Source: Bdellovibrionales bacterium (GTDB lineage: Bacteria > Bdellovibrionota > Bdellovibrionia > Bdellovibrionales > UBA1609). From it: 64,000 nucleotides of DNA. Position 1 is the stretch's first letter. Every line of letters begins with the position of its first letter. The translations under genes were made by a program, and so were the position numbers. Where the stretch lies: the NCBI GenBank assembly GCA_965199825.1, contig OZ241329.1, forward strand, positions 992,001 to 1,056,000. Reading direction: 5' to 3'. Shown piece after piece: positions 39,469 through 58,388 of this stretch. The notes under the pieces were generated by a model. The model was not told where the DNA came from and did no database searches. It saw nothing but the letters and a program-made list of their open reading frames with translations.

Positions 39469-39558
39469 GGAGAGGTGGCCGAGTGGCTGAAGGCGTCAGT
39501 CTTGAAAACTGAAGAGCTCGTAAGGGTTCCGTGAGTTCGAATCTCACCCTCTCCGCCA
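39469..39558 (+). tRNA. tRNA-Ser(UGA)
   Basis: ggagagg/cctctcc acceptor stem, anticodon loop cttgaaa, long variable arm, gttcgaatc T-arm and encoded CCA. Confidence 0.97.
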
Positions 39559-39744: not shown

Positions 39745-40446
39745 GTGAATATAAAATCTGTGACTTCTCACTTTCGACTTCTAAAACATACTTCAATATT
39801 TCCTGACACTGTCTTAGTTTGCGCCGCACACTTTGACGTCGACCTAAGCCAGGACACTCAATATCAATATTTGTTGCCAGAGATTTTAAATTCAGCTGGA
39901 GCGGTTCGGAAAGCTGAATATATCGCGGGAAGGCTTTGCGCGCAGAATGCATTAAAAGATCTGGGCTATAATGTGCAACCTTTTGAGCTCCCGACGAATT
40001 TAGATCGTACGCCAAAATGGCCTCCGGGAATTATCGGCTCCCTATCCCATGGAACTGGCTTTGCGATGGCCGCAGTTGCGATTGAAGGAAAAAAGTGGCG
40101 GGGGTTAGGTGTTGATAGCGAACCTATTTTTTTGGACGAAGTGACTCAAGAAATAAAAAGTCGGATCGGAACAGCTCGCGAATTTAGTAAGCTAAAATAT
40201 TTAGATGAAAATACTTGTACGACACTTTTGTTTTCAGCAAAAGAGGCTGTGTATAAGTGCCTCTTTCCTATCCTTAAAACATTTTTAGAATTTGAAGATT
40301 TAAAACTTATCGAGGTTCATAACGAAATCTGTAAATTGGTTTTAAAAACAATTAAGCCCGATCTAAAATGCTTCACCGTAGAATGCACTTACGAAATTCT
40401 TAGCAATTCGATTCAAACTTGCGCCGTTTTAGGGATGATTTCTTGA
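39745..40446 (+). CDS. 4'-phosphopantetheinyl transferase (EntD-like)
   Basis: RKAEYIAGRLCA, PKWPPGIIGSLSH, LGVDSE and FSAKEAVYK. Confidence 0.9.
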   Translation: MNIKSVTSHFRLLKHTSIFPDTVLVCAAHFDVDLSQDTQYQYLLPEILNSAGAVRKAEYIAGRLCAQNALKDLGYNVQPFELPTNLDRTPKWPPGIIGSLSHGTGFAMAAVAIEGKKWRGLGVDSEPIFLDEVTQEIKSRIGTAREFSKLKYLDENTCTTLLFSAKEAVYKCLFPILKTFLEFEDLKLIEVHNEICKLVLKTIKPDLKCFTVECTYEILSNSIQTCAVLGMIS

Positions 40447-43400
40447 AGCTAAAATTTCTTTCAAGGTTAAACTTTTTCGTTTTGTGATAACGACATCATT
40501 TTGGATTTTTGGGAGGTCTCGAATAATTTCGGCCATACCTGAAATCCGTGGATTTTCGAATAATCTAAAAAGTGGAAATTCCACATGTAGGCGTTCACGA
40601 ATTCGCGCCAACATCCGTGTGGCAAAAAGCGAATGTCCTCCAAGATCAAAAAATATATCATCGGTGCTGATCTCATCGCGCCCTAATAATTCCTGCCAAA
40701 TAGTTAAGAGTGCGCGCTCCACTTCGTCTTTCGGCTCGATGAGTTTGCGTGAAGATTCTGACTCGACCGTCACAACTTCTCTATCTAATTTATTGTTGAG
40801 CCAAAGATCTGCTCGCTGACGAATATCTTTTCGAGATACAAATATCGTTGGCACAGGCGAGCATTGGACCACAAGGTCAAAAAGCTTGAGGCTTTCATGA
40901 GGCTGCATCGCGAATTGCTCGAGACTCGTCGTGCGCGATCTTGCCGCTTCATTTTCAACGCGCCACCCGTCCCAAGTTGCAGTCAACCAGCGACGATCCC
41001 CTTGGCTCCACATTTGTGTCGCAAACAAATCCATAAATTGATTAGCAGCGGAGTAAGCCAATAAGCCAAGTCCACCGAGTGGCGAGGCATTAGAAGAAAA
41101 AAGCAAAATGAAATCCAAGGGAATATCTTTAAGAAGTTTGAAAAGGATTTCGGTGCCGTTTACTTTTGCGCGGTATTGCTCGGTAAAATCATCATGGGAA
41201 AGATGCGAAAATAAAGTCTGCATCGTAAAGCCGCTTGTTATTCCAGCAGCATGAAGAACACCATCAATGTGTCCAAATTTTTTAATGGTTGATGTAATTA
41301 CAGAATGCATCTGCTCGAGATTGCTGGAGTCCGCTGTTAAACAGAGGACTTCACCACTTCCAAAATCGATATTCTCAAAAGATGCACTTCGGCCTGTTAA
41401 TACGATGCGAGCTTGATAAGTTTTTGCAAGATGAGCAGCAAGATGTCGGCCGACTTTCCCCAACCCACCTGTGATTAAATAAACACCACCGGTTTTAATC
41501 TGGCGTTGAATGTGAGTGGATGATGACAAATGAAGTGGACTAAAGTCCGCAACAAAGCATCCGTGAGGCCGTATCGCAAACATTTGTGGCGCCGTTTTAG
41601 CAAATATGAAACTCAACGCATTTCGCCAGTCCTCAAGCGTTTGCGGTCGAGCATCACAAAGCACTGTCTTCACCCCTAAATGCTCTTGCGGAATCACTTT
41701 CATGGCCGCTACAAATGGAGCGACTCGTGGATCGATAAAATCTTGAGGTCCAACAAGTGCAACTCCACTCACAACAATTGTTAAAAAAACCGTATCGCTC
41801 ACGTCATTTAAAAACTTCAAAAAATTTCGAAGGCGTAAAAGTGCGGCTGTGTTTTCATCTATTGTTGCATTGGGCTCAGTGAGAAATACTATTTGTGAGA
41901 CTTTGCAATCGGTAAGAAGGAGGTCGGTCTCCTTGCAAAACCGGTATCGACCGGGGAGTTGTTTTAGCAAAGGCTCCACTTCTTCTAAGCGTTTAGCCGA
42001 GCCAATGACCAAACAAAATATACTATTATCATTTAATTTTGGTAAAGCTTGAACATCTTGTCTCCAAACCGGCGCAGAGAACCAATTTGTTAAATCAGAT
42101 TGCTTCTCTCTAACTAGATCAGGCCTCAGCCAGCATCTCGTTTTTGCAAAGGCGTAGCCAGGCAATGAAGTCACACGGGCATTTTTGACGCCATTAATTT
42201 TTGACCAATCTAAATTTATTCCAGAGATCCATAATTTTGCGACGGCACCGCCAAGACAAACGCGATCTGCTATCGCCTCGCCTTGACTCCGCATACTGTG
42301 AACACTGACGACACCATTTTTTAAAAGTTCGTTAGCGCGCACAATACTAGAAAGAATGCGGCCTGGCCCAACTTCAAAAAACACTGCTGGACCAGAAGCT
42401 GCGAGTTCAGTGAGTCCCTGTTGAAATTCTACGGGCTGTCTCAGCTGACAAACCCAGTATTCAACGGAGGTTGCTTGCGCATCCGTAATCCAAGTTCCAC
42501 TCACATTAGAAATAAATTTTATTTTGGGTTTTTTAAGGACTGTAAGTGTCAAAGCCGCACGATACTCATCGAGCACGCCATCCAGTAAATATGAATGGGC
42601 CGCCGTTGCTAGCGGAATTTTTCGGTATTCAATCTCCTGCGCTGTGAGTTCGAGTTCTAATTTTTCGATTCCGTTGACTGTTCCAGAGACTGTTGTGACC
42701 TCCGGTGCATTTTTAGCCGCAATTCCAGTGCCTGATGGAATTTTCGTAAGCTGAGATGGAGAAGCTCTTACACTTAACATTGCTCCCGCTGGACATCGAG
42801 CAAGTAAAACGCCTCGTTGAATAACTAATTTTAATGCTGCAGTAAGAGTAAATACTTCTGCTAAAGTCGCTGCAACATACTCACCCAAACTATGCCCAAT
42901 CATTCCACCGGTCGGAACAATTTCTCGAGCCATCAAAGCCTTCGCCAATGCATATTCAACTATGAATAAAGAAGCTAATGGAATTGCGAAACCTAATCGC
43001 TCGTCAGGAGATAAACTTAAGCTATTTGATTCGCTAAAAAGATATTTTCTAATGTCGACACTATACTCTTTTTGAATAATCGCAGCACAGTCGTCGATCT
43101 GTTGTCGAAAAAATAAGTCGGCTTCATAGAGATCAAGAGCCATCGGAAAATACTGGGCCCCTCCGCCTGGAAAAAGAAAGCAAAGTTGTTTAGCGCTTTG
43201 CTCTCCTTTTAACCAGTGATTAGGCTTATGTTCTTTAAGTATCTCGACAAGATTCTGCTGATCTGTAAAAAGAGCAGCAGCCCTGTGCTCGAATGAAATT
43301 TGTCGAGTTTGCATAGTGTGAACAAGATCATCTAAGCGTGGCGCAGGTGTTCTAGACACCGCTTGCAAAAGGTCACTCGCTATCGAATCTAAGCCGGCCT

Positions 43401-44754
43401 CAGTTTTTGAAGACAGCGGCAAGATGGAGTAACCAAAAAATCCGGGCGGTTCGACCTCAGCGCGGGAGGGGGTTTGGTAACTTTCAATCACTACATGCGC
43501 ATTTGTTCCGCCGATGCCAAAAGAATTGACCGCTGCAATCCTGCGGTCGGTTTTCCATTCTTGAATTTTAGAATTCACATAAAAAGGAGAGCTTTCCAAA
43601 TTGAGCGCTGGATTTGGTTCGGTAAAATTTAATGTTGGTGGAATAAGTCCGCGTTCTAAAACTAGAATTGTTTTTATCAATCCACTGACGCCAGCGGCTG
43701 CATCGAGATGTCCAATATTGGTTTTTATTGAACCAATCGCACAGTAGCCCTGACGTGATGAAGATTTACGAAATGCACGAGTTAATCCTGCAACCTCAAT
43801 AGGATCTCCAAGCTTCGTTCCGGTTCCGTGAGCTTCTACAAAACCAATGTCGTCTGCGCTCACACCCGCCAACGACAGCGCGGCAGCCATTCCCTCAGCC
43901 TGACCCATCTCACTTGGTGCTGTGAATCCCATTTTTAAACTGCCGTCGTTATTAACAGAGGTTGCGAGAATGACAGCACGAATGGGATCTCCATCACGAA
44001 GGGCGTCATCAAAACGTTTTAAGACAACAACTGCTGTTCCGTTACCACTGAATACTCCATTTGCCTGGATATCAAAAGCGCGACACTTCCCATCTGGCGA
44101 ATACACTCCGCCTTCAGAATAAATATATCCTCTATTTTGTGGAAACCGAATAGAGGAGCCACCAGCTAGAGCGATATCACACTCGCGAGTGAGCAAACTT
44201 TGACAAGCTAGATGAACCGCCGTTAACGAAGTTGAACAACCGGTTTGAACAGTCATGCTTGGCCCGGTTAATCCTAATTTATAAGAAACTCGAGTCGCTA
44301 AAAAATCGCTCTGTGAGCCAATCTGAGCCATAAAGTCGCCGTCAAAATATTCTGAGTTTAAATCTAAACTACTCAGGTAGGATGTCATGCTTTGACCAGC
44401 ATAAACCCCGACAGGAACTTTAATTTGATTTGGAAGGTAGCCTGCGTCCTCGAGTGCTGTCCAAGCACACTCTAAAAAAAACCGTTGTTGAGGATCAATG
44501 AGTTCAGCTTCTTTGAGAGAATACCCAAAAAACGCATAATCAAAATTTTCGGTGTCGGCAACAACTCCACGCACTGGGACATAATTTGAATTTTCAAATT
44601 CGTCTTTTGATACTCCTCCTTTGCTCAAGTCCTCTGAGGTAAAATGGGTCGAACCATTTTGACCTGCACAAATATTTTCCCACAAGGCCTCAACATTTTT
44701 TGCATTAGGAAAACGGCCCGAAACTCCTACCACTGCAATTCGAAAATCACTCAT
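40429..44754 (-). CDS. Type I PKS module KS-AT-KR-ACP
   Basis: KS: TGCSTSL, HGTGT, NIGHLD; AT: GHSLG; KR: GGLGKVG, YSAAN; ACP: FFDLGGHSL. Confidence 0.93.
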   Translation of the reverse strand: MSDFRIAVVGVSGRFPNAKNVEALWENICAGQNGSTHFTSEDLSKGGVSKDEFENSNYVPVRGVVADTENFDYAFFGYSLKEAELIDPQQRFFLECAWTALEDAGYLPNQIKVPVGVYAGQSMTSYLSSLDLNSEYFDGDFMAQIGSQSDFLATRVSYKLGLTGPSMTVQTGCSTSLTAVHLACQSLLTRECDIALAGGSSIRFPQNRGYIYSEGGVYSPDGKCRAFDIQANGVFSGNGTAVVVLKRFDDALRDGDPIRAVILATSVNNDGSLKMGFTAPSEMGQAEGMAAALSLAGVSADDIGFVEAHGTGTKLGDPIEVAGLTRAFRKSSSRQGYCAIGSIKTNIGHLDAAAGVSGLIKTILVLERGLIPPTLNFTEPNPALNLESSPFYVNSKIQEWKTDRRIAAVNSFGIGGTNAHVVIESYQTPSRAEVEPPGFFGYSILPLSSKTEAGLDSIASDLLQAVSRTPAPRLDDLVHTMQTRQISFEHRAAALFTDQQNLVEILKEHKPNHWLKGEQSAKQLCFLFPGGGAQYFPMALDLYEADLFFRQQIDDCAAIIQKEYSVDIRKYLFSESNSLSLSPDERLGFAIPLASLFIVEYALAKALMAREIVPTGGMIGHSLGEYVAATLAEVFTLTAALKLVIQRGVLLARCPAGAMLSVRASPSQLTKIPSGTGIAAKNAPEVTTVSGTVNGIEKLELELTAQEIEYRKIPLATAAHSYLLDGVLDEYRAALTLTVLKKPKIKFISNVSGTWITDAQATSVEYWVCQLRQPVEFQQGLTELAASGPAVFFEVGPGRILSSIVRANELLKNGVVSVHSMRSQGEAIADRVCLGGAVAKLWISGINLDWSKINGVKNARVTSLPGYAFAKTRCWLRPDLVREKQSDLTNWFSAPVWRQDVQALPKLNDNSIFCLVIGSAKRLEEVEPLLKQLPGRYRFCKETDLLLTDCKVSQIVFLTEPNATIDENTAALLRLRNFLKFLNDVSDTVFLTIVVSGVALVGPQDFIDPRVAPFVAAMKVIPQEHLGVKTVLCDARPQTLEDWRNALSFIFAKTAPQMFAIRPHGCFVADFSPLHLSSSTHIQRQIKTGGVYLITGGLGKVGRHLAAHLAKTYQARIVLTGRSASFENIDFGSGEVLCLTADSSNLEQMHSVITSTIKKFGHIDGVLHAAGITSGFTMQTLFSHLSHDDFTEQYRAKVNGTEILFKLLKDIPLDFILLFSSNASPLGGLGLLAYSAANQFMDLFATQMWSQGDRRWLTATWDGWRVENEAARSRTTSLEQFAMQPHESLKLFDLVVQCSPVPTIFVSRKDIRQRADLWLNNKLDREVVTVESESSRKLIEPKDEVERALLTIWQELLGRDEISTDDIFFDLGGHSLFATRMLARIRERLHVEFPLFRLFENPRISGMAEIIRDLPKIQNDVVITKRKSLTLKEILASRNHP

Positions 44755-47700
44755 GTGCGCCTGCGTTCTAAATTTGAAAGTGCAGATCGCCGTAAATTTA
44801 CATTTGGTAGAGGCGCCAACTTTTGTTCTTTGTGCTCTTTCAAAAAATCAGAAATAGATGCAATTGTTGGTGATCGAAACAAATCGGTAAGAGCAATACG
44901 CCTTTCAAATTGGCGTGCCAAGCGGGACTGAATTTGTAAGAGCGAAAGCGAACTTCCTCCGACATCAAAGAAGTTATCTTTCAAACCAAAAGAATTGTGA
45001 CCCAAAACATCTTTCCACACCTGAGCAATCGATTCTTCGGTTTGAGTAAGAACGCAATTCAAATCTCCAGCTGACGAGTTTTGCAACGGTGCTGGAAGTT
45101 GTTTGTAATCCACTTTTCCATTTGGGGTGACAGGTACGGTTTTTATAAAAACAAAGGCCGCTGGAATCATATGATCCGGCAAGCGAGACTTTAGTGACTT
45201 TGACAGCTCTGAAACTTTAATTTCGGTATTATCTTGAACTTTGATGTAGGCAACAAGTTGCTTTTGTCCACCAGATGAATCACGAACAATAACAACACTG
45301 CGTTCGACTCCTTTGAAGTCCGAGATAGCCACTTCAATTTCACCAAGTTCTATTCGAAAACCACGTAGTTTGACTTGATGATCAAAACGCCCCAAATATT
45401 CAATATTGCTGTCACTCAAAAAGCGAGCACGATCACCTGTTTTATAAAGAGTCTGCCCTTGGGTAAATGGATTTTGTATAAAACGTTCGTCTGTTAGTTC
45501 AGGTTTATTGAGGTATCCTCGGCCGACGCCGACCCCACCAATGTAAAGCTCGCCGGCTATACCGATTGGAACCGGCGCAAGTACTTTGTCCAAAATATAC
45601 ATTTGGATATTATCAATCGGACGCCCGATGGGCACGAAATGAAGATCTGAATTTGGCATGCATTGCCAATAAGTCACATCAACAGCGGCTTCGGTTGGAC
45701 CATAAAGGTTATGCAGTTGAGTCACCTCACTACCAAAGATCATAAAAAATCGGTGCTGTAAATCGAGCGGGAGTGCCTCACCACTACACACAAAAAGTCT
45801 TAATGACTTACAAGATGCCGCGTCTTCATTCATTAAAAATGCGTGAAGCATTGACGGAACAAAGTGAAGGATCGTCACACTTTGAGAGTTGATGAGATCA
45901 ATTAAGTATTGAGGGTCCTTGTGTCCATTGGGTTTAGCAACAACCAATTTCGCTCCATACATGAGAGGCCAAAAAAATTCCCAAACCGAAACATCGAAGC
46001 TAAATGGAGTTTTCTGTAAAACTACATCATTAGATCTCAAACAGTATTGCTTTTGCATCCACGCCAAGCGGTTGTAGATTCCTGCATGAGTATTCAATGC
46101 TCCCTTAGGCTGACCTGTAGAACCCGATGTATAAATCATGTAGGCGAGATCGTGAGGCTCCAGCGCCACAAGGTCTTGAGACGACACCCGCTCTGAAAGC
46201 TGTTTTTCGGTTACACAAACAAATTCAGTTTGAAGCAATAAATTAGAGTAGACCTCTTTAAAAATTTGCTGAGTAAGTACGATTTTTGGATTTGAATCCT
46301 TGATCATATACTGAATACGATCTTCCGGATAACCGGGGTCTAACGGAACGTACACAGCGCCCGAACGCAAGCAGGCCAGAAGTGAAATTACGAGATGAGT
46401 TGATCGCTCCATCAAAACGCCAACAAGATCACCTTTTTTTATACCTTTATTATTTAAGAGAGCGGCAAGACGCGCCGATAGAAGATCTAAATTTTTGTAG
46501 GTTAATTTTTCGCCTTCAAATTCGACGGCGACGGCATCAGGATTTATTTTGCAAGAGCGTTCAATCTGTTCATGAATGCAAATGTGTTCAGGGTAGCTCA
46601 CATCTGTTTGATTCCAAGTTCTAGTCACTGTTTCAAGCTCATCTGGCGACAAAATATTCAATTTTTCAACTTTGCATTTAGAATCTTGTGCTGCCGATTT
46701 TAATAAACATTTAAAATGGTCTGCCATTCTAACAATGGTGGTGTGGTTAAAAAGTGCTGTGTTGTATTCGAAGGTGCAGACCAGTTGCTCACCTTCTTCA
46801 ATGTGCAAACTGATGTCGAATTTAGAAATAGATAAGTCGGCGAGAACTACCGAAGTTTGCAAATTAGACCAAGACGTTTCGCTATAAGCGCGATTATAAT
46901 TAAACAAAACTTGGAAAATTGGACTATGGCTAAGGTCTCTTGAGGGGTTGAGGACTTGAACTAGTCTCTCAAAGGGCAAATTTTGAAGCGATAGAGCTTC
47001 AATCGAGATATTTTTTATTTGTTCAATGGCATCTTCGAAATTGTTGCTCGGACTGACATGAGCGGGCAAAGCAACTGTATTTACAAATAAACCTACTAGT
47101 GATTCGCTCGCGACATCAGGGCGATTGGCGACGGGAAGACCGATCGCGAAGTCGGTTTGATTAGTGTAACGACTTAAAAGAACAGCAAAACCAGCAAGTA
47201 GTGTGTGAAATAAGGTTGCCTCGTTTTTAACTGAGATCTTTTGAAGTTCGTCCGTATTCGTTAAACAAAAACTGAAATGACCACCCTGATGTTTTTGGAA
47301 TGCAGGGCGAGGTCGATCCAGCGGAAAATTAAGGTTCTCACATACTTTTAATTTCTCAGCCCAAGTCTTTACGTTTTTTTCCTGAAGCGAGATCACCTCT
47401 GTCGAGTTTTGTTTGTTGCCGATATAAGTGGTTACCAATTTTGGGAGCGGCGGTGTCTGTTCCTTACAAAAAGCCTCAAAGGAGACTTTCAATTCGTGAC
47501 GAAGAATCTGCATGGACCAACCATCACAAACAATATGATGAGCGCAAAATCCGAGAATGTTTTCGTTTTGGCTCAAACTCCACAGTTGGAATCGGTAGAG
47601 TGGATCACTTTGCAAATCAAATGGACGACGTGCCCACGTGTTGAGATCGGTTTGCAAATTTTCGGTTTGGGCTTTGACTGGCTCGAGCTGAATTATTGTT

Positions 47701-50700
47701 GGATTTGATACCGACTGATTGATTATTCCGTTATGTTCTTGAAATTGCGCGCGGAGTTGCTCATGACGTTGCACAAGGTAGCTCAGGGCTTTGTTGAGAG
47801 CTGAAATATTTAATTCGCCTTTTATACGAATAAAAAAGAGTTCATTATAAAAAGGGCTCTGCGGATTCATTTTCGCAAGAAACCAGAGGCGCTGTTGGGC
47901 ATCCGTTAGAGGGTACGGTCCTGCACCGTGGAGACTAAAGGTCTCTATGAGAGGACTTGAGCCGATTTCTGATTGAATTAAACGAATTTGCTCTACTAAA
48001 TCATTAAAACGGGGAAATCGAAAAACGATCTGAACTGGAACTTTCAGATTGAGTTCAGCTTGAATTCGAGCAATGAGGCGCATTGCTAAAAGCGAATGAC
48101 CGCCACAGCGGAAAAAATGTTGAGAAGAGGACTGCACTGTTTGACCGAGTAAACGCATCCAAATATCGGCAAGTGCCATTTGCAATTTATCAGTAGGTTT
48201 GAAATCATTGGTCTGCGGCTGAATCAGTTGAAGAGCCGTTAAAGCATTTTGATCTGGTTTGCCATTAGCCGTCCTTGGAAGAGCATCCATCACTACAAAG
48301 TGAGAAGGAAGGCTCGAGGTCGGGAAAGTCCGAGCCGAATCTTTCGCAAGTTGCGACACCGAAAGATTTGCGGCCTCCACAAATGCGATCAGGTGATGAG
48401 TTCCTGACTCATCTCTTCGTGCGTGCACGACTGCAGAGCGAATTAAGGGGTGGCGCATAAGCTGTTGCTCAACTTCACTCAGCTCAACACGGAAGCCACG
48501 AATTTTAACTTGGCGATCTTTTCGTCCCATAAAGTAGTAAAAACCTTGCGGGGTTTGCCTTACAAAATCACCTGTTCTGTAAAAGCGCTCGCCATCGAGG
48601 ATAATAAATTTTTCTTGAGTTAAGGCCTTGTCGTTGACATATCCGCGAGCGACTCCTGGTCCCCCAATATAAAGCTCACCCGTTACATAAGGTGCAACGA
48701 CTTCCTGATTTTGGTTAAGGACCAAAAGACGAGCACCGCCAATTGCACGACCAAGTGGCAAGGTGTTAACTAACTTCAGTTGATCGAGATCCTGAGCTAC
48801 CAGAGTAGTCATAACTGAGCCTACGCAAGTTTCGGTTGGCCCGTAGTGATTACAAATTTTTAGGTCTGGTCGCTGTTCAAAAACTTTTCGAACTAAATCA
48901 ATACCTAAGGATTCACCACCAAAAATTAAAAGACGTTTTGGTATCGCTTCGGCTTGAGTAAAGAGCGCTGCAAAATGATTTGGAACAATTTTAAGAATAT
49001 CAATTTTATTTGTTTGTATGTAGCTCGCAAATAACGCTGCGTCGGTTACGATTTCTTGCGGCATGAGATGAAGAGTTCCTCCATTCAATAGCGACGGCAT
49101 GACACAGGTATTGCCTAAATCCGCGTTCAATGTTGTTACAGTTGCGAATTGAAGTCCTTCAAGCCTGCAATTTAAAAGCTCGCTCATCGTTTTCGATATC
49201 GCTTCGGAATAGTGGACGATATTCGAGTGAGTGATGACAACCCCCTTGGGCTGACCAGAAGATCCAGATGTAAACAAAATGTATGCGCCACCCATTTGGT
49301 TGGAAATTTTGGGCGCAATTTGTTCCTCTAATGTGGAGCTGATTCGAACTTGAATGGCTGTTCCTAAAACATCAATTGTATCGTCTTTCACAATAACAAA
49401 ACGCGGCTGGGCGGCGGCAACTTTGAGCGCGGTTCGCTCGGGTGGATCTTCTGGGTCAAGTGGCATAAATATACCGCCCGCTTTTAAAATTCCTAAAATT
49501 GAAACAATGGATTCTAAAGCGCGCGGTAAATAAATTCCGACGATATCTTCATGTTCAAGACCCTCCGTCTGAAGTTTTGCTGCAACTTGATCTGACAGGT
49601 GGTCAAGCCTTTCATAGCTGAGATTTTTATCATCACAAACCACAGCAATTTGCGACGGATTCAACCGTGCACGATCAATAAAAAATTTATGTAAAGTTCG
49701 ATTTGTTTCTACAAAGTCGAGTTTACCAAGAGATTCCTTTCGAGAACGCAGAAGGATGGATTTCAGCTTGGATTGTGGAGCCCTGCACATTTTTTTTAAG
49801 AAGCTCAGCATGTCGTTGGCAAATTGTTCGATCATTGCTGGAGCGAAAAGTTCTGCATTGTAAATAAAGTCGCAATCCAACCAATCGCCACCGACTTCTT
49901 CAAACTGGAGCGAGAGATCAATTTTTGCGTTCTCTAAATCAAATTTCATAACAGACGCGCGCACATCGCCCATTTCAAAATTTCTCATGAGCGACACGTG
50001 TTTATTGAATGAAACTTGAAAGATTGGATTTTGCGTCGTATCGCGTTCAGGGTTAAGAATTTCAACCAAACTTTCAAATGGGATATCCTGCCGAGCAAAG
50101 TCTTTTAAATTGGCTTCATGCAGTTGTGACCACAACTCTAAGACAGAAACTTCTGGATCGATCACCGAGCGCATAGGAATAGTATTTGCGAATAGACCAA
50201 TAATAGGTTCAATCTCTTCGAGATCACGTGAAGCTGAGGGAACTCCAATACTAAAATTAGTCTGATCTGTGTAATGCCAAAGTGACATTTGATAAGCGCT
50301 AAACAAAAGAGTGAATGGCGTGACATGAAATTGCCGGGCAACAGATTTTAATTCTATATATTCATGTTTTTCGATCTTAAATCGAACGGTGCGTGCCTTA
50401 CGTGATGCCCTTTGAGAACGATTGCTCAATGCTGGTAAGAGTAAAGGCTCGCTGGAGCGAAGGTGCTCCACCCATTTGCTTAATCGTTGCTTGAAATCAG
50501 GTCCACAGACTGTTTTTTGCTGCCACTCGGCAAAATCGATCGGCTGACACGAAAGCTGTGTTAAATCGGGTTGGCGATTGCAACAAAAAGCGTCGTAGCA
50601 TTTTTGAAGTTCGCGCAAAAAAATAGCAAATGACCAACCGTCACAAATAATATGATGAAAATTAAAAGCTAAAATATTGTAGTCAGAACTGATTTCAAAT

Positions 50701-51068
50701 AACCGAGCTCGAAATAGCGGACCACGGACTAAATCAAATGGCTTTTTGATCCACCGCTGGATCTCAGCCTCGGTGGCATGGCCCACATTCTCGGATTTTA
50801 ATAAAATCTGTTTACTCGGATGAACAACTTGAAGCGGCTCTCCCTCTTTATCAATAAAGAGCGTCCGCAAACTCTCGTGGCGAGCAATCAGAAAATCAAT
50901 GGCGGCGTTAAGTGCCTTAATTTTAAGATCTCCGCGCAATTCTAATAGGAGTGGCTCATTAAAAGCCCAATCGGATTCTGACAGCTGAGCGATAAACCAC
51001 AGTCGTCGTTGAGCAAAGGAACATCGATGCCCGTTGGGATTTCTTGGAATAGAATTTAAAGTTTTCAA
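44751..51068 (-). CDS. Bimodular NRPS C-A(Asp-like)-T-C-A(Ser)-T
   Basis: HHIICDG and HHIVCDG C domains; FTSGSSG and YTSGSTG A3 motifs; GGHS and GGSS T domains. Confidence 0.93.
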   Translation of the reverse strand: MKTLNSIPRNPNGHRCSFAQRRLWFIAQLSESDWAFNEPLLLELRGDLKIKALNAAIDFLIARHESLRTLFIDKEGEPLQVVHPSKQILLKSENVGHATEAEIQRWIKKPFDLVRGPLFRARLFEISSDYNILAFNFHHIICDGWSFAIFLRELQKCYDAFCCNRQPDLTQLSCQPIDFAEWQQKTVCGPDFKQRLSKWVEHLRSSEPLLLPALSNRSQRASRKARTVRFKIEKHEYIELKSVARQFHVTPFTLLFSAYQMSLWHYTDQTNFSIGVPSASRDLEEIEPIIGLFANTIPMRSVIDPEVSVLELWSQLHEANLKDFARQDIPFESLVEILNPERDTTQNPIFQVSFNKHVSLMRNFEMGDVRASVMKFDLENAKIDLSLQFEEVGGDWLDCDFIYNAELFAPAMIEQFANDMLSFLKKMCRAPQSKLKSILLRSRKESLGKLDFVETNRTLHKFFIDRARLNPSQIAVVCDDKNLSYERLDHLSDQVAAKLQTEGLEHEDIVGIYLPRALESIVSILGILKAGGIFMPLDPEDPPERTALKVAAAQPRFVIVKDDTIDVLGTAIQVRISSTLEEQIAPKISNQMGGAYILFTSGSSGQPKGVVITHSNIVHYSEAISKTMSELLNCRLEGLQFATVTTLNADLGNTCVMPSLLNGGTLHLMPQEIVTDAALFASYIQTNKIDILKIVPNHFAALFTQAEAIPKRLLIFGGESLGIDLVRKVFEQRPDLKICNHYGPTETCVGSVMTTLVAQDLDQLKLVNTLPLGRAIGGARLLVLNQNQEVVAPYVTGELYIGGPGVARGYVNDKALTQEKFIILDGERFYRTGDFVRQTPQGFYYFMGRKDRQVKIRGFRVELSEVEQQLMRHPLIRSAVVHARRDESGTHHLIAFVEAANLSVSQLAKDSARTFPTSSLPSHFVVMDALPRTANGKPDQNALTALQLIQPQTNDFKPTDKLQMALADIWMRLLGQTVQSSSQHFFRCGGHSLLAMRLIARIQAELNLKVPVQIVFRFPRFNDLVEQIRLIQSEIGSSPLIETFSLHGAGPYPLTDAQQRLWFLAKMNPQSPFYNELFFIRIKGELNISALNKALSYLVQRHEQLRAQFQEHNGIINQSVSNPTIIQLEPVKAQTENLQTDLNTWARRPFDLQSDPLYRFQLWSLSQNENILGFCAHHIVCDGWSMQILRHELKVSFEAFCKEQTPPLPKLVTTYIGNKQNSTEVISLQEKNVKTWAEKLKVCENLNFPLDRPRPAFQKHQGGHFSFCLTNTDELQKISVKNEATLFHTLLAGFAVLLSRYTNQTDFAIGLPVANRPDVASESLVGLFVNTVALPAHVSPSNNFEDAIEQIKNISIEALSLQNLPFERLVQVLNPSRDLSHSPIFQVLFNYNRAYSETSWSNLQTSVVLADLSISKFDISLHIEEGEQLVCTFEYNTALFNHTTIVRMADHFKCLLKSAAQDSKCKVEKLNILSPDELETVTRTWNQTDVSYPEHICIHEQIERSCKINPDAVAVEFEGEKLTYKNLDLLSARLAALLNNKGIKKGDLVGVLMERSTHLVISLLACLRSGAVYVPLDPGYPEDRIQYMIKDSNPKIVLTQQIFKEVYSNLLLQTEFVCVTEKQLSERVSSQDLVALEPHDLAYMIYTSGSTGQPKGALNTHAGIYNRLAWMQKQYCLRSNDVVLQKTPFSFDVSVWEFFWPLMYGAKLVVAKPNGHKDPQYLIDLINSQSVTILHFVPSMLHAFLMNEDAASCKSLRLFVCSGEALPLDLQHRFFMIFGSEVTQLHNLYGPTEAAVDVTYWQCMPNSDLHFVPIGRPIDNIQMYILDKVLAPVPIGIAGELYIGGVGVGRGYLNKPELTDERFIQNPFTQGQTLYKTGDRARFLSDSNIEYLGRFDHQVKLRGFRIELGEIEVAISDFKGVERSVVIVRDSSGGQKQLVAYIKVQDNTEIKVSELSKSLKSRLPDHMIPAAFVFIKTVPVTPNGKVDYKQLPAPLQNSSAGDLNCVLTQTEESIAQVWKDVLGHNSFGLKDNFFDVGGSSLSLLQIQSRLARQFERRIALTDLFRSPTIASISDFLKEHKEQKLAPLPNVNLRRSALSNLERRRT

Positions 51069-52285
51069 TTGTAAGCGCCTGTGTTGAAATTACGTGAATG
51101 GAAACGTGAAATAAAAAATGCCAAAATTGCAAAGAGCACCAATAGAACTGCAACAAGCGAGCGGTTAAATTCCCCACTTGAATAAATCCAGATTGCAATA
51201 CAGCAAGATGTAAACTGAAAAATAGCCAGCCATCGCAAAACTAAAGTGTTAAAATGAACTAAATCATTTCCTGACATTGCGCTTCGAACTAAAATATCTG
51301 CTGGATAATAAACACCTGCATTGAGACCCGACATAAAAACCATAACCCCCATAGCTCCAGACGAAGGCATCAATAAAAATAAAAAGCCACTTGCAGTATA
51401 GGTTAGCGGCAATACACGTATCCAAAAACGAGCCGAAATAAAATTTTGAAGACGATTGTAAAAGAGGCCCATGATCAATCCAGGCAGTCGCAATAGCGCA
51501 ATGACAACGATACTCGTGCCGATATCAAAGAAACCCATTTTTGCGCTGATCATCGGAAAATAGTTGGGAAAGAGCGCGTTGAGTGCGTGAAGAAATGGAA
51601 TTGTCATTAAAATCCACATCAGAGAAGTTGAGTCGATTCCCTCTTTATTTTTTATTTTAACAATTGAGTCTGGGGTAAGCAGTGCAGCATCAGCATAATA
51701 ATTTTGACCCACATAAACCAAAACTACACCAAATACGATAAAGCTGAGCGCATCTATTAAGAGGCCAAATCGCCAGTTCCCCGCACTAACTAATGCAGCC
51801 GCAACTAGCATTCCAATTAACATCGCAGCAACGTCAATCGCGCCCTTAAAATTAACAAGCTTTTTGTATTCAGACTCATCGGCAAAAAAACGATACATTG
51901 TGACCTGGTAAAGCAAGCGTGGAATACCTTCTTTAACAAAAGCATAGCCGAGCAAAAATAAGATCGTTAAAACTAACGACGAAACAGGATCCTTATAAAA
52001 AAGTGTAAGAATTGAAACCACGATTTCAAGAGCGGCTACGGCAAAAAGAACTTTAGCATAATCTAAGCGCGCGCTATCGTGTCGCTTTGCAATGGTGCGG
52101 GCAAAAAAACTTGCCGCAAAAACAGAGAGAGCCGGTACAAGCCAGGCCACCACTGAAAAAGATATTTTACCAGTCTCAAAGCCAAGACCTTGCGGAAGCG
52201 AAGTCACCAAAACAATATCGCCAAAAGCGGAAATAAACGAGGCTGTAAGAAACCAGAAACCGCGTTGAGATCGAGAAAATTTCAA
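51065..52285 (-). CDS. MFS-type transporter, probable exporter for the cluster
   Basis: About 12 TM segments, ISAFGD and IDALSF motifs; 4-bp overlaps with both NRPS genes. Confidence 0.75.
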   Translation of the reverse strand: MKFSRSQRGFWFLTASFISAFGDIVLVTSLPQGLGFETGKISFSVVAWLVPALSVFAASFFARTIAKRHDSARLDYAKVLFAVAALEIVVSILTLFYKDPVSSLVLTILFLLGYAFVKEGIPRLLYQVTMYRFFADESEYKKLVNFKGAIDVAAMLIGMLVAAALVSAGNWRFGLLIDALSFIVFGVVLVYVGQNYYADAALLTPDSIVKIKNKEGIDSTSLMWILMTIPFLHALNALFPNYFPMISAKMGFFDIGTSIVVIALLRLPGLIMGLFYNRLQNFISARFWIRVLPLTYTASGFLFLLMPSSGAMGVMVFMSGLNAGVYYPADILVRSAMSGNDLVHFNTLVLRWLAIFQFTSCCIAIWIYSSGEFNRSLVAVLLVLFAILAFFISRFHSRNFNTGAYN

Positions 52286-55200
52286 AAAGAACTCCCTGTT
52301 TTTAAATTATTGAGCGCCATTCGATCAAACAAGTTTTGTGTAAGTCTGGAGACAAACGGTTTTCGCATCAGCGTGTAATGAGTGGCGTCGGCGATAATTT
52401 GCTCTGTGTATCGACCTCGGGTGCAGCTTTTCCAATTTGTTTTGTGCAGTAGTTTGTTTTGCAAACTGTGATCGGCCCATACAGCATGAATAGATGCTGA
52501 AAGTGTGGGTTGCGTAAAATTATAAAAAAGCATTGCATGCCGAGCAGATAATTCTGCCAAGCGAGCAACGTAGGACGCATCAACTTCAAGATTTAGATTC
52601 CACTTTTTCTTGGTCCAGTTCAAAAGCCAAGCCGCTAATGCTGCCCCTGGAACCTCTTTTAGACCCTCTTTGATTTCTGTTCGATCGTCCACAGTCAACT
52701 CATGTCCAATGGAACTCGCGAGAGAATTTAGGACGCTCGAGTATCCACGAAGCCAATCGAGTTCCGACGGCAATGGCAATATATTTTCGCGAACGCCACA
52801 GTCCCACAGTTCAACGGATAAGACATTTATACCGCGATCTTCTAGCCGCGCAGCAACTTCCATTGCTAACAAGCCACCCATGGACCAACCCATAAGCATA
52901 CACTCTCGTTTAGTACCAAGATGACCAAAAATTTCTTGTGCGTAAGCTTCTGTCATATTCTTAGAGTTAGAATATTCTAATGAGGGGTCGTCGAGAGCCC
53001 GAGATTGAATAGCGAAAATAGGAGTTAAGCCATCGGTATTTGCAACCAATTGTCCATATACAAAAATATCTCCACCCATCGGGTGGAAGCAGTACAACGG
53101 TGCACGATGTGGTTCACCCCCTGACAACATTATTAAATGTGATGCCAGTCGCGAAATAGGATTTCGCTTTTTACAAATCATTGCCATTTCTCGAATGGTT
53201 GGATTTTGAAAAAACTCTGCAGATGTCAACTGAGTTCCAAATTGCTGGCGCACTCTATGAATGAGTCGTGCTGCAAGAAGAGATTGCCCGCCTAAATGAA
53301 AAAAGTTGTTCTCTATGCCGATAGAATCTTGGCCCAGCAAACTTTGCCAGATTATTTGCATGCGCGATTCGAAAAGATCTGTAGGTGGCGAATACTCTCT
53401 GAGATTTCCGTTAGCCCGATCAAACAATTTGGAAGATGATCGGAGGCGGCTGTGGTCCAATTTCCCGTTTGAATTGATAAGCATTGTCTCAACAGAATGA
53501 AACCAAGTCGGAATAAAAGACTCAGGTAGACGACTCTTAAAATGGAGTCTCAGATTATCGATGGTTAGCAAATGAGAATTTTTTTGTTGAATGTAGGCGT
53601 GAAGCTCGAGCTCATTTTGAAAATTGGATTCAGCAAAAACCGCCGCATCTTGAACCCCTGGATGAATCAACAAGACATTCCGAATTTCTTGCAGTTCAAT
53701 GCGGTGGCCACGGATTTTAACTTGATCATCAACCCGGCCTAAAAATTGGGCGGTGCCGTCCCTTCGTAGTCGCACCATGTCCCCTGTCCGATAGGATGCA
53801 AGCCCACCTTGTTTATCAGAAGGAATAAAACGAGCAAGTGTCAATTCGGTGTGGTTTAAATAACCATCTGCGACTTGTGGACTTCTTATCACTAGCTCAC
53901 CAGGGACTTCACGAGGGAGGAGACTCCCGGTCTCATCCACAGCGTAAAATTCCGTATTATAAGTGGGGCTTCCAAGAGTTGGGTGCGGTGTTGAGCGATC
54001 GATCCTATAAATTGTTGAGTCGACTGTACACTCAGTTGGACCATAGACGTTATAGAATTCAATCTCATCGGAATTTGCGAGCTGGGTCCAAAGTCGAGAA
54101 TGGATGGCTTCTCCGCCAACTAAAACTTGCCTCAATTTTGTTTGATTTAAGTCACCGTGTTCTAATAAAAATTTTAAGTGAGACGGCGTGCAGTCAAAAA
54201 GATCTACGCGTTGATCAATTAACCACTCCAATAGTTTTTCGGCATCTGTTCTGAATTCCAGGGGGACAATGCAAAGTGTATGTCCAATCAAAAGTAATAC
54301 GATCTGTTGAACCGAAGCATCAAAGGTCAAAGGTGCATTTAAAGAAATGCGTCGAGGTGCCTCTTTTTCTGAAACACACAGAGTGTTTTCCAATGATTTT
54401 TTTAAATTCTTCACTCCTTGAGTGCGAATTTGACATCCCTTGGGCTGACCTGTGCTTCCAGATGTATAAATCAAGTAGGCGACATCGTTACTTCCACTTC
54501 GAGACGGTAAACCAATGGGTAATGAACTTTTCATTAATGTTTGAAGCGATAATGTGGGACACGATAGATTCAAAAACTTTTTTTGTGGCTCGTGAGTTGT
54601 TAGTACACAAGAGATATTTGCGTCGCGCACCATAAATTCGAGTCGAGCATCAGGAGCAATAGGATCAAGAGGAACATATGCAGCACCCAAGGCCCACAGG
54701 GCAAGAATTGCGGCGATGGGTGCAACCTCACGATCAGACATAATTCCAATATGATCGCCGGCCTTAACCCCATTTTGTTGTAGACCACTTGCAATGCGAA
54801 GAGAAAGCTTTCTCAGTTCGCTAAAACTAAGCTCAGAGTCTTGATCACAAAGCGCTGTGATAGGACCGCGTTTAAGCGCCACACTTTCAAAACTCTCCCA
54901 CAAAGAAGTTTGCTCTATATCACAAGTAGGTCCGCGCAAGGTATCTACCGCTTCGTTAGCCTCAAGGGGTAGACGAAGAAGGGCTTCCTTTGGATTTGAA
55001 AGTGCAGAATTAAGTTGGGATACAAAAACACTGCGAAGGCTTTCTATCTGAGACGCTGAGTAGGCGTTGGAATCATACTCTACTTGAAGCGAAAGTTTTT
55101 GATCGCCTTCAAAAAAGAAAAAGGTGAGATCAAACTTAGCTTGGCGACGAGCGGGCTGTTGAACATCAACTTTGAGACCGCTCAATTTTAAATGACCGTA

Positions 55201-56316
55201 AGGCGTTTGCTGCATTTCTACAGCAACTCGAAACAAAGGCTTAGACGAATTTTTGCTTGCCGCAACAATTTGATCAAAAGGGATGCTGTCGTGCATAGAA
55301 GTTGATTGCAAAATTTGTGTGGTCTGATGAACCAACTGATCGAAGTTGATATCCTCAGTAAAATCTGCAGGAAGGGCTAGCGTGTTGACAAAAAAACCGA
55401 TGGTCTTTTCAAATTCACTTTGCTTGCGATTGAACGTGGTCGTACCAACCACAGATCTTTCAGTACGTGTGGTGCGATATATCAATGCGTGAACAGCAGA
55501 CAATAAAACTGTGAATGGCGAAAGTCCTCTTTGCTCACAAAACATATTTAGTTTAGTTTTTAATTTTGAGTCTAAATCTCCGTAGGTGGTTTCTGACAAA
55601 CCCAAGGGTTGAGGAAAATTGCCGCATAAATTGGTATGTGAAATTTCTTTTTCCAGTAATCTGCCCCAAAATTCAATAGATCCTTTATTTTTCAAATTCT
55701 CGATGGTTTGATTTTCCCAATTTGCAAACTCGGAGTATTGAGGGGCTTCATGAAGTTCTAAACCAAGTCCTTTGCGCTTGGCCGCATAGATCGAGCTGAG
55801 CTCTGAAAAAAAGAGGCCAAGCGACCAGCCATCGATAATAATATGATGAAACAAAATAGCTAAAACATATTGGTCTTTGGTCTTTTCATAAAAAGCACAG
55901 CGAAAACCAGGCTCATTAATCAATTTAAATGGTCTCTTTACAAATTCCTCTGTCCAAAGCTGAATGTTTTCAGCTGACGAAGGGCGCTCGAGAAAAAAGT
56001 TGTCGCTATCTAATGGCAATAAATGTGGAAAGTGATCTTCATCAAGAGAGAAAAAAACGGACCTTAAAATTTCGTGTCTTGAAACGATCTCTCTTAGTGA
56101 TTCTTCAAGGTCTTTCCAATTGAGTTCTCCATATAGATTTAAAATAACTGGGATGTGATAGGTATTTGAGTCGGGATCCAAAAGTTGCAGCATCCACAAG
56201 CGATGTTGAGAGGGAGAAATCGGTGATGTTGCATCAATGATGCTCGCCACTTCATCGCTTGTCAGATTGTCCAGTTGATTAGTTTTATGGAAGCTCATCG
56301 GAAAATCGCACGGCAT
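52282..56316 (-). CDS. Termination-type NRPS module C-A(Gln/Glu-like)-T-TE
   Basis: HHIIIDG, YTSGSTGQPKG, YGPTE, GGQS T domain; TE motifs FHPMGG, GWSMGG, THY. Confidence 0.93.
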   Translation of the reverse strand: MPCDFPMSFHKTNQLDNLTSDEVASIIDATSPISPSQHRLWMLQLLDPDSNTYHIPVILNLYGELNWKDLEESLREIVSRHEILRSVFFSLDEDHFPHLLPLDSDNFFLERPSSAENIQLWTEEFVKRPFKLINEPGFRCAFYEKTKDQYVLAILFHHIIIDGWSLGLFFSELSSIYAAKRKGLGLELHEAPQYSEFANWENQTIENLKNKGSIEFWGRLLEKEISHTNLCGNFPQPLGLSETTYGDLDSKLKTKLNMFCEQRGLSPFTVLLSAVHALIYRTTRTERSVVGTTTFNRKQSEFEKTIGFFVNTLALPADFTEDINFDQLVHQTTQILQSTSMHDSIPFDQIVAASKNSSKPLFRVAVEMQQTPYGHLKLSGLKVDVQQPARRQAKFDLTFFFFEGDQKLSLQVEYDSNAYSASQIESLRSVFVSQLNSALSNPKEALLRLPLEANEAVDTLRGPTCDIEQTSLWESFESVALKRGPITALCDQDSELSFSELRKLSLRIASGLQQNGVKAGDHIGIMSDREVAPIAAILALWALGAAYVPLDPIAPDARLEFMVRDANISCVLTTHEPQKKFLNLSCPTLSLQTLMKSSLPIGLPSRSGSNDVAYLIYTSGSTGQPKGCQIRTQGVKNLKKSLENTLCVSEKEAPRRISLNAPLTFDASVQQIVLLLIGHTLCIVPLEFRTDAEKLLEWLIDQRVDLFDCTPSHLKFLLEHGDLNQTKLRQVLVGGEAIHSRLWTQLANSDEIEFYNVYGPTECTVDSTIYRIDRSTPHPTLGSPTYNTEFYAVDETGSLLPREVPGELVIRSPQVADGYLNHTELTLARFIPSDKQGGLASYRTGDMVRLRRDGTAQFLGRVDDQVKIRGHRIELQEIRNVLLIHPGVQDAAVFAESNFQNELELHAYIQQKNSHLLTIDNLRLHFKSRLPESFIPTWFHSVETMLINSNGKLDHSRLRSSSKLFDRANGNLREYSPPTDLFESRMQIIWQSLLGQDSIGIENNFFHLGGQSLLAARLIHRVRQQFGTQLTSAEFFQNPTIREMAMICKKRNPISRLASHLIMLSGGEPHRAPLYCFHPMGGDIFVYGQLVANTDGLTPIFAIQSRALDDPSLEYSNSKNMTEAYAQEIFGHLGTKRECMLMGWSMGGLLAMEVAARLEDRGINVLSVELWDCGVRENILPLPSELDWLRGYSSVLNSLASSIGHELTVDDRTEIKEGLKEVPGAALAAWLLNWTKKKWNLNLEVDASYVARLAELSARHAMLFYNFTQPTLSASIHAVWADHSLQNKLLHKTNWKSCTRGRYTEQIIADATHYTLMRKPFVSRLTQNLFDRMALNNLKTGSSF

Positions 56317-56661: not shown

Positions 56662-57153
56662 ATGCAAAAATCTTGTTATTTATTCTGTGTGTTTTTAATT
56701 TTGGCAGGAACTTTGTCTTTTGCCCAAAAGATCAAACAATCAAATCCCTGCTTAAACTTTAAAATTTCGAAGGTTTATATTCTCAAAAAAGAGATGAACG
56801 ACGAGGCCAATCATAAAGGTTGTTTTTCTGAAGACAGCCCCTGCTATGTTAATATTAAAACGACTCAAGGAATAACAAGACGTTTTAGATTTCTTTTACC
56901 GTCGACCGATACAGATGAGCACATAGGTTATTCCTCACAGTGCGAAGGAGCAAACCTTGACAGCCACGGATCGATTGCTGATCTCGTTTTGCCAAAGGGC
57001 TGCAATATATCGATAAATTTTCCTGTCGCTAAAACAGGAGATCCCGTAACGGTGTGTGATTGCTCGGCCTCCATATGCAAGAAGCACGAAGAACAAATTC
57101 ATCCAACATCGAACCGTTCGGAAAAATCAAAAAATAGTGATACTACGCCTTAG
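56662..57153 (+). CDS. Secreted Cys-rich protein, paralogue 1
   Basis: Signal peptide; 8 mature Cys; aligns with 57921..58388. Confidence 0.8.
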   Translation: MQKSCYLFCVFLILAGTLSFAQKIKQSNPCLNFKISKVYILKKEMNDEANHKGCFSEDSPCYVNIKTTQGITRRFRFLLPSTDTDEHIGYSSQCEGANLDSHGSIADLVLPKGCNISINFPVAKTGDPVTVCDCSASICKKHEEQIHPTSNRSEKSKNSDTTP

Positions 57154-57920: not shown

Positions 57921-58388
57921 GTGTTGAGCAAAATATTTTGTGGAGTTCTCATTTTAATTGGGACAATTTCAAATGCCCAACAGGCGGCGTCGTGTTCAAG
58001 TATAAAGATCACTAGGGTTCACATACTCCATAACGAACCAAATGATGGCATGAACCACAAAGGATGTTTTGATAAAAGTATTCCGTGTTTTATCGATATC
58101 GAAACACCGGGTGGGCAAAAAAAACGCATTCCATTTCTCTCCCCGGCTCCAGCGGATAAAGATAACATGGGATTTTCATGGCAATGTGATGGTGTTGATC
58201 TCGACAGCAAGGGCTCAATTGCAGATCTCAGTTTACCTTCGAACTGTAGGATCTCGGTCCATTTTGCGACCTCTCCAAATGCGGAGACAAAAAATCAGTG
58301 CGAATGCACTCAAAAATCTTGTAGTGGGCCTGGGCAAATTCCTCAACCCGCAACTCCGAAAGAAAAAGAGAACGACGCTATCTCTTAG
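57921..58388 (+). CDS. Secreted Cys-rich protein, paralogue 2
   Basis: Signal peptide; shares NHKGCF, GSIADL.LP..C and C.C....C with paralogue 1; gagga SD. Confidence 0.8.
   Translation: MLSKIFCGVLILIGTISNAQQAASCSSIKITRVHILHNEPNDGMNHKGCFDKSIPCFIDIETPGGQKKRIPFLSPAPADKDNMGFSWQCDGVDLDSKGSIADLSLPSNCRISVHFATSPNAETKNQCECTQKSCSGPGQIPQPATPKEKENDAIS

Follow-up and report, generated by a model that had tools for sequence, protein, structure and literature searches.

A rare, intact hybrid NRPS-PKS cluster in a Bdellovibrionales genome, with a short polar peptide as its predicted product

The 64,000-nucleotide stretch of the Bdellovibrionales bacterium assembly GCA_965199825.1 analysed here (contig OZ241329.1, positions 992,001 to 1,056,000; hereafter the window) contains a hybrid cluster of nonribosomal peptide synthetase (NRPS) as well as polyketide synthase (PKS) genes that is intact and rare. 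Its five genes lie at 39745–56316 (coordinates are positions in the window, and operon genes are on the minus strand unless stated). According to open reading frames (ORFs) and Pfam matches they encode an NRPS with condensation, adenylation, thiolation and thioesterase domains (C-A-T-TE; NRPS1), a major facilitator superfamily (MFS) transporter, an NRPS with the domains C-A-T-C-A-T (NRPS2), a PKS with ketosynthase, acyltransferase, ketoreductase and acyl carrier protein domains (KS-AT-KR-ACP), and a convergent phosphopantetheinyl transferase (PPTase). With its modules, TE, PPTase and active sites in place, this is a modular cis-AT hybrid NRPS-PKS cluster. On balance it is probable that the synthetases act in the order NRPS2, PKS, NRPS1 and make a short polar peptide. 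NRPS2 would load aspartate and then serine, the PKS would extend the serine by one ketide and reduce it, and NRPS1 would add glutamine and release the product, (X)-Asp-[Ser extended, reduced]-Gln, where X stands for an N-terminal cap; the MFS protein would export the peptide. By analogy, the chemistry is of a known kind, the KR-type statine logic. It is a general point against this reading that the cluster is known here from genes alone; more specific ones are given where they apply.

The layout agrees with what a first-pass annotation had described from the DNA letters, namely a four-gene operon coupled by 4-bp overlaps, a PPTase converging on it, and the same domain strings. The operon begins with NRPS1 (1344 aa, 52282..56316), the terminal module, whose C domain is of the LCL type, and continues with a divergent MFS protein (51065..52285) that is predicted to be an exporter and whose Pfam match of 27.2 bits lies under the Pfam cut-off of 33.4. 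NRPS2 (2105 aa, 44751..51068) and the PKS (1441 aa, 40429..44754) follow, the latter having no dehydratase (DH), enoylreductase or methyltransferase (MT) domain. The three overlaps read TTGA, TTGA and ATGA, and the 4'-phosphopantetheinyl transferase gene (EntD/Npt-like; 39745..40446, plus strand) shares 18 bp with the 3' end of the PKS gene; its product matches 4PPT_N and ACPS, while the EntD, Npt and PptT models score under their cut-offs. The catalytic motifs, which had been called apparently intact, have their residues present in every domain checked: C173/H309/H349 of the KS, S622/R647/H720 of the AT, K1197/Y1234 of the KR and S1375 of the ACP (the catalytic residues of the PKS being invariant across three orthologues), HHxxxDG in 3/3 C domains, and the triad S1145/D1172/H1313 of the TE. 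No NRPS or PKS outside this cluster is present in the 2.84-Mb genome, which is scored 100% complete. A 16.6-kb cluster with its own PPTase is also small enough for expression as a whole.

To the left, the cluster adjoins a tRNA-Ser(TGA) gene (39469..39558, plus strand), which forms the left edge of a lower-GC variable region; GC drops there from 45–47% to 41–43%. Chimerism of the contig at this junction, named beforehand as a danger, can be ruled out by contig and second-sample coverage. In run X1 a single 61.5-kb contig covers 37200–57100 with 0 differences (this contig may itself be the source), and in a second sample 30/30 bins are covered, with one piece across the tRNA and no differences inside the cluster. 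A 29-nt match of the tRNA 3' end, found 31 kb downstream, was considered as an att repeat and proved to be a second whole tRNA-Ser gene. There is no integrase among the ORFs scanned at 56.6–63.3 kb, and upstream of NRPS1 no promoter signal exceeds chance. No RNA dataset was listed as containing the cluster, and eleven reads of RNA run X5 were rejected as partial foreign matches.

An orthologous cluster was found in an Oligoflexia metagenome-assembled genome (G061, the same as G181; stretch L013; 58% GC), and the assignment of that genome to the same phylum bears out the host phylum proposed from the letters. Its gene order is NRPS1, S-adenosylmethionine (SAM) methyltransferase, MFS, NRPS2, PKS, the shared genes thus standing in the window's order; it also has a divergent free carrier, a protein whose C-terminal tail is acidic, and its convergent PPTase is of a different subfamily (AASDHPPT_N+ACPS). 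The pocket codes of its A domains are DLTKVGHVGK, DVWHISLVDK and DAQDLGVVDK. Gene order and codes are kept at domain identities of 34–65% to the window, which speaks for a kept function. A contig of 20,600 bases is given for each of three Logan proteins, an MFS protein (P0002, 62% identity), a PKS (P0007, 51%) and an NRPS1 (P0247, 40%, same code), which would represent a third copy of the cluster; the window's MFS is 52–62% identical to those of the two orthologous sets. As a side observation, the best solved relatives of the G061 methyltransferase (L013:7076-8086) are the protein-lysine methyltransferases 8hkr and 5doo, and next to the orthologous cluster lie a DUF6788 gene and the remnant of a reverse transcriptase (L013:1906-2307, L014:9377-10483), signs of a mobile neighbourhood.

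Read against motif positions, the pocket codes of the window are DLTKIGHVGK and DVWHVSLVDK in NRPS2 and DAQDLGVVDK in NRPS1, as they had been read by eye, with V at the one position left blank in the second code. The substrates assigned earlier are supported by published code tables as well: Table 2 of PMC3207962 assigns DLTKIGHV to Asp modules and DVWHVSLI to Ser, and DAQDLGVVDK fits Glu and Gln alike in the codes given in PMC12283262. We are therefore rather confident that the residues are Asp, Ser and Gln/Glu; that the last code does not separate Gln from Glu speaks against writing the product with Gln. The Asp code also equals that of pyoverdine beta-hydroxyaspartate modules, and the clusters around the best plasmid PKS matches include TonB receptors and TauD genes, as would suit a beta-hydroxyaspartate siderophore. 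Such a product is highly improbable, given that TauD is in neither genome (the E. coli control was positive), that there is one Asp only, and that the cluster is without a TonB receptor, MbtH or an iron transporter. The absence of an MbtH gene, which extends to the whole window genome and to the orthologue genome, is a point against the favoured peptide too.

In the case of the order of assembly, the chain must end on NRPS1, because the sole TE of the cluster sits there. The C-terminus of NRPS2 is Arg-rich and looks by eye similar to the ends of three NRPSs from plasmid clusters in which each comes before a PKS. In the KS, the stretch ahead of the active Cys is of a kind that is typical of KS domains fed by a peptidyl carrier protein (PCP). 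Adjacency and the terminal motifs suggest a hand-over from NRPS2 to the KS. At the other end, the tail of the PKS and the head of NRPS1 resemble, again by eye, a PKS-NRPS junction of Leptolyngbya. This tail (40432..40494) is a predicted docking helix for NRPS1, on the grounds of conservation (T1430, L1431 and A1436 are invariant in three orthologues) and of a complex model of NRPS1 1–450 with PKS 1335–1441. The model scored 0.63 versus 0.18 for the best of three controls; the pass mark was attained by 116/157 solved pairs and 2/215 mismatched pairs, contact agreement between runs was at least 92%, the partner pLDDT at least 83, and the lowest-error contacts joined PKS 1431–1435 to NRPS1 22–29. 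Two points count against this evidence: the pass may reflect memory, because solved PCP-C structures exist (2jgp, 7kvw), and the controls did not include the first C domain of NRPS2 as a rival partner. With KS type, docking ends and complex model in agreement, the order NRPS2, PKS, NRPS1, which the first-pass annotation had also preferred, is very probably correct. A gene order that differs from the protein order is ordinary, as are KR-made statine units, in the systems described in PMC12081711.

The PKS extender is less certain than the order. The AT domain (42265..43191) has the pocket motif TAAH instead of HAFH or YASH, both orthologues have VPAH, and all three have Ala where malonyl ATs have Phe. 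Its nearest solved relatives are ZmaA-AT at 206 bits (GAAH) and 5yda at 192 bits (AAAH; titled only PKS in its entry, and presumably SpnD), versus 163 bits for the best HAFH AT. The malonyl motif HAFH occurs in 94/137 AT matches among homologues. The AntD motif MPAAAH is associated with a widened pocket in the account of PMC6117356. With no malonyl motif in the AT, and with ZmaA and an AT of the AntD type as its closest relatives, we lean slightly towards a C2-branched extender, most simply methylmalonyl-CoA, which would give 4-amino-3,5-dihydroxy-2-methylpentanoyl. A carboxyltransferase gene adjoins the methylmalonyl-CoA mutase gene in 2/2 genomes (window and orthologue), neither genome has a crotonyl-CoA carboxylase/reductase (CCR) above cut-off, and neither has a match to FkbH, the latter a weak negative whose control gave no signal anywhere. 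A literature search on AAH-type AT motifs found none.

Some of the evidence on this domain runs the other way. AAH-type homologues barely outscore HAFH ones (median 223 vs 212 bits), the AT of SmlC has LRIAPH yet no alkyl variation as described in PMC6117356, and by analogy a non-HAFH motif does not exclude malonyl. The first-pass annotation had indeed proposed malonyl extension, to a plain 4-amino-3,5-dihydroxypentanoyl (ADPA) unit, and in its fuller form this alternative has a protease-inhibiting product, N-acylated Asp-ADPA-Gln as the acid or a lactone. It leaves the order and codes unchanged, malonyl-CoA is always at hand, and SmlC is a case of a narrow non-HAFH AT in this group in the same paper. 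The Ala for Phe in all three orthologous ATs disagrees with it, and so does the side chain of the statine unit, hydroxymethyl here, where inhibitors of the pepstatin type have a hydrophobic one. We consider this alternative unlikely, and the malonyl-derived part of the earlier proposal doubtful for want of HAFH. The other part, a statine-type unit with its beta-hydroxy group retained, has held up better: the group quite likely stays, given an intact KR, the lack of a DH, and a following C domain that does not belong to the dehydrating AmbE/McyA type (in a nearest-neighbour test the C domain of NRPS1 scored 159 bits to Txo2 and 46–58 bits to AmbE/McyA). The same two features, no DH and the type of this C domain, led to rejection of the APD/vinylogous-amide line. 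Of the features that define KR-type statine pairs, the window thus has a T domain upstream of the KS, a KR and no DH, and lacks the malonyl AT (HAFH).

The first C domain of NRPS2 (C1; 49749..51029) is intact and, judging by its nearest solved structures, of the LCL type, with 159–203 bits to Txo1, DhbF and TycC, 28–49 bits to starter C domains and 54–78 bits to AmbE and McyA, which rules out a starter or dehydrating type. In a tree it is sister to the second C domain (C2) and is not faster evolving; branch lengths for C1/C2 are 1.24/1.05 in the window and 0.66/0.61 in the orthologue. Of the five carrier domains encoded in the genome, four belong to the cluster and the other is the fatty-acid ACP; no starter C domain, fatty acyl-AMP ligase (FAAL) or free carrier was found in it, complete as it is at 100%. 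An intact C1 with no donor identified in the genome is evidence against the reading proposed here, and it makes doubtful the description of the cluster as self-contained in the first-pass annotation. In G061, by comparison, the N-terminus of NRPS2 is longer and the free carrier probably feeds the first C domain. Because the window genome has neither this carrier nor the methyltransferase, and its NRPS2 is without the N-terminal docking stretch, the cap X would either be absent, leaving a free Asp, or be an acyl group borrowed from fatty-acid metabolism. The orthologue pair with and without free carrier and methyltransferase amounts to a natural experiment on the priming of an LCL-type first C domain.

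The N-acylation that belongs to the malonyl alternative has to be judged here as well. LCL-like C domains are able to accept carrier-bound acyl groups, and the C domain of PvdL, which reportedly works in a FAAL-ACP context, scores 111 bits; however, there is no starter C or FAAL, and the two larger other AMP-binding proteins of the genome are FadD-like (a third, short AMP-binding match was left out of that scan). A lipopeptide NRPS with an acyl starter was rejected in the absence of a starter-type C domain or a FAAL with ACP. Another way to supply C1 would be a circular or pass-back line, in which Gln bound to the T domain of NRPS1 is donated to C1. The product would be Gln (or pyroGlu)-Asp-Ser*-Gln, a set of oligomers or a ring. 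The C domains at the two N-termini are both intact and of the LCL type, C1 evolves no faster than C2, no other donor was found in the complete genome, and pass-back has been shown for thalassospiramide (10.1101/560987) and proposed for pepstatin. Against this, NRPS1 runs on from its T domain into the TE and offers no free docking end, the window's NRPS2 is without an N-terminal docking stretch, the orthologue has its own free carrier, and C1 and C2 look like the outcome of an internal duplication; we regard pass-back as distinctly unlikely.

The favoured line ends on the type I TE of NRPS1 (52285..53139), and here a feature appeared that the first-pass annotation had missed, a TE clade linked to Gln-type codes. 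A profile built from two TEs was searched against 1.84 billion representatives, and its top matches were single-module C-A-T-TE proteins. The set comprised 152 sequences (150 matches, the window and one Streptomyces clavuligerus plasmid protein), and in 64 of these the TE was complete and the code of the last A domain could be read; the 64 were placed in a quick IQ-TREE tree of the TE alone with midpoint root, and the TE query itself makes for a biased sample. One clade (SH-aLRT 99) holds 21/64 sequences including the window, its named members being Archangium, Streptomyces, Streptacidiphilus and Nocardia. Last A codes of the form D-[AV]-Q-[DE] are found in 21/21 inside this clade vs 0/43 outside, and codes match at 5/8 positions or more in 192/210 in-clade pairs and 42/903 outside pairs (pairs that are not independent). 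The catalytic Asp is preceded by Trp in 21/21 members vs 2/43 others and followed two residues on by Gly in 20/21 vs 2/43, a W-D-x-G signature that the window shares. Median TE identity inside the clade is 30%, so that a Gln-type partner kept at this distance, with neighbouring TE lineages swapping freely, points to a conserved C-terminal chemistry.

What this chemistry might be is suggested by PadE-TE (padanamide B) and IdgS-TE, both of which turn Gln into the ring 3-aminopiperidine-2,6-dione, at a mutual identity of only 21%, as reported in PMC10989907. It is conceivable, though doubtful, that release occurs by attack of the Gln side chain to give such an end, and equally tentative that the terminal C-A(Gln)-T-TE is a mobile Gln-glutarimide cassette with a W-D-x-G TE, distributed over Bdellovibrionota, myxobacteria and actinomycetes. 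The likelier release is by hydrolysis, or by closing a ring on a hydroxyl group or the N-terminus. For uncapped products the calculated [M+H]+ values are 393.162 (malonyl) and 407.177 (methylmalonyl) as the acid, and 375.151 or 389.167 after cyclisation. Several points speak against the glutarimide: the likeness to PadE is by description; the C domains of the 11 members tested also form one clade, and because of this the link between Gln and TE amounts to one inherited module; and the S. clavuligerus member adjoins diaminopropionate and carbamoyltransferase genes, because of which its pocket may take ureidoalanine. The last neighbourhood would suit a TE that cyclises the side chain of a Gln isostere, yet shows that the code is not strict. 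The member in question belongs to an unannotated cluster on the S. clavuligerus megaplasmid (L086:4945-22898) with an A-T protein, the same-clade C-A-T-TE, two cyclodeaminases, a PALP enzyme and a carbamoyltransferase, which could load ureidoalanine and cyclise it to aminodihydrouracil. Should side-chain release be true for the window, the cluster would make a three-unit branched-statine peptide ending in a glutarimide, the thalidomide pharmacophore, and genome mining could use the W-D-x-G signature as a handle on natural peptides that carry a glutarimide tip.

The distribution of the cluster is patchy. No full-length PKS orthologue was found among 60 relatives, the TE clade is in 2/401 genomes of the phylum, and MFS matches are in 4/301 genomes of the own order and 2/116 of the other order. 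NRPSs as such are uncommon in the phylum and not exceptional (C domains in 48/401 genomes). Further copies were found neither in JGI metagenomes nor in IMG/VR, the search for NRPS2 homologues gave solely generic three-module proteins and the atlas searches generic families only, and other NRPS/PKS contigs of the phylum (10 contigs, 13 stretches) have different architectures. That no close characterised cluster was recognised at the outset still holds, in that plasmid and PDB searches gave no match above about 40% identity and a literature search found no characterised NRPS-PKS product from the phylum. The GC content at third codon positions (GC3) of the three synthetase genes is 35–37% vs a median of 42% (ranks 2, 8 and 10 of 102 long ORFs), and this atypical value plus the patchy spread suggests that the cluster was gained horizontally. 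The same observations, with the G061 carrier and methyltransferase absent here, would also suit a stranded, non-producing remnant that has lost both. With 16.5 kb free of stops and frameshifts, intact catalytic residues, tight overlaps, a dedicated PPTase, and a second sample with no differences inside the cluster, a remnant is very unlikely.

Some observations on other loci came out of these searches. Distant MFS homologues (33–38%) lie outside NRPS loci, and the MFS gene fails as a cluster marker under about 40% identity, 4/4 such loci being without NRPS/PKS in the stretches examined, some of them short contigs. In one (G446, L061:5053-8809) there are three tandem divergent MFS genes, one 38% identical to the cluster MFS, with no NRPS on the 10-kb contig. 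Another genome of the Bdellovibrionota (G206:C53, L046-L047) encodes a four-module NRPS of 4265 aa together with a divergent NRPS-PKS pair, all of unrelated architecture. A two-C NRPS of about 1800–1900 aa with a TE recurs in many genomes of family f22 (genus g44; L023-L028, L037, L038 and others); 22/100 genomes of this family have C domains, and the protein appears conserved lineage-wide.

The flanks of the cluster hold further genes of their own interest. A secreted-looking trypsin-like serine protease gene (PF13365; 38378–39307, plus strand) lies between serS and the tRNA-Ser gene, outside the cluster. Directly upstream of the cluster, on the opposite strand, two small Cys-rich secreted-looking paralogues without Pfam match (56662–57153 and 57921–58388, plus strand) are arranged around a MAPEG gene, and at 59712–61052 (minus strand) there is a lipoprotein-like ORF of 446 aa, by eye similar to glycoside hydrolases but matched by neither Pfam nor NCBIfam models. 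Of the four tRNA-Ser genes three, with tRNA-Arg and tRNA-Asn, are found in an 85-kb stretch of 41–44% GC (G000:C1:1031469-1094307), which is rich in small secreted-looking ORFs.

Several known systems share parts of this cluster. The ATs of antimycin and splenocin (AntD, SpnD) have the Ala-x-Ala-His pocket that admits C2-substituted extenders, but their clusters rely on a CCR, which is not found above cut-off in the window genome, and have a different scaffold. Zwittermicin A reportedly starts with Asx, Ser and a ketide; its ZmaA-AT is the nearest solved AT and its post-PKS module has a related DAQ-type pocket, whereas ZmaA takes hydroxymalonyl-ACP from dedicated genes that were not found in the window, and identity is about 34%. 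The zwittermicin/amicoumacin prodrug line was rejected, there being no epimerisation domain and no prodrug peptidase, and no FkbH (weakly so, the control being silent). In didemnin, burkholdac, hapalosin, thalassospiramide and nosperin, as listed in PMC12081711, an amino-acid module followed by a KR-bearing PKS module gives a 3-hydroxy-4-amino unit, and the window follows the same logic. In thalassospiramide it is Ser that is extended by C2, according to 10.1101/560987; its line includes a starter C, a DH-bearing trans-AT module, an N-methyltransferase and Val/Tyr modules, while the window, with its cis-AT of the AAH type and three A domains, has none of these, and membership was rejected. By the tests run, the window cluster is a member of none of the families compared. 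Padanamide, of the padanamide/actinoramide line (Streptomyces sp. RJA2928), is reportedly built from hydroxyleucine, piperazate and a Phe-ketide, its 2-methyl gamma-amino-beta-hydroxy residue being said to come from a KS-AT-KR-ACP module just before the Gln module. It differs in its methoxyacetyl starter, its carbamoyltransferase route and its residues, and piperazate and carbamoyltransferase genes are not among the ORFs of the window cluster. What the two reportedly have in common is a terminal C-A(Gln)-T-TE after KS-AT-KR-ACP, and on this analogy the window line appears most like the end of the padanamide line.

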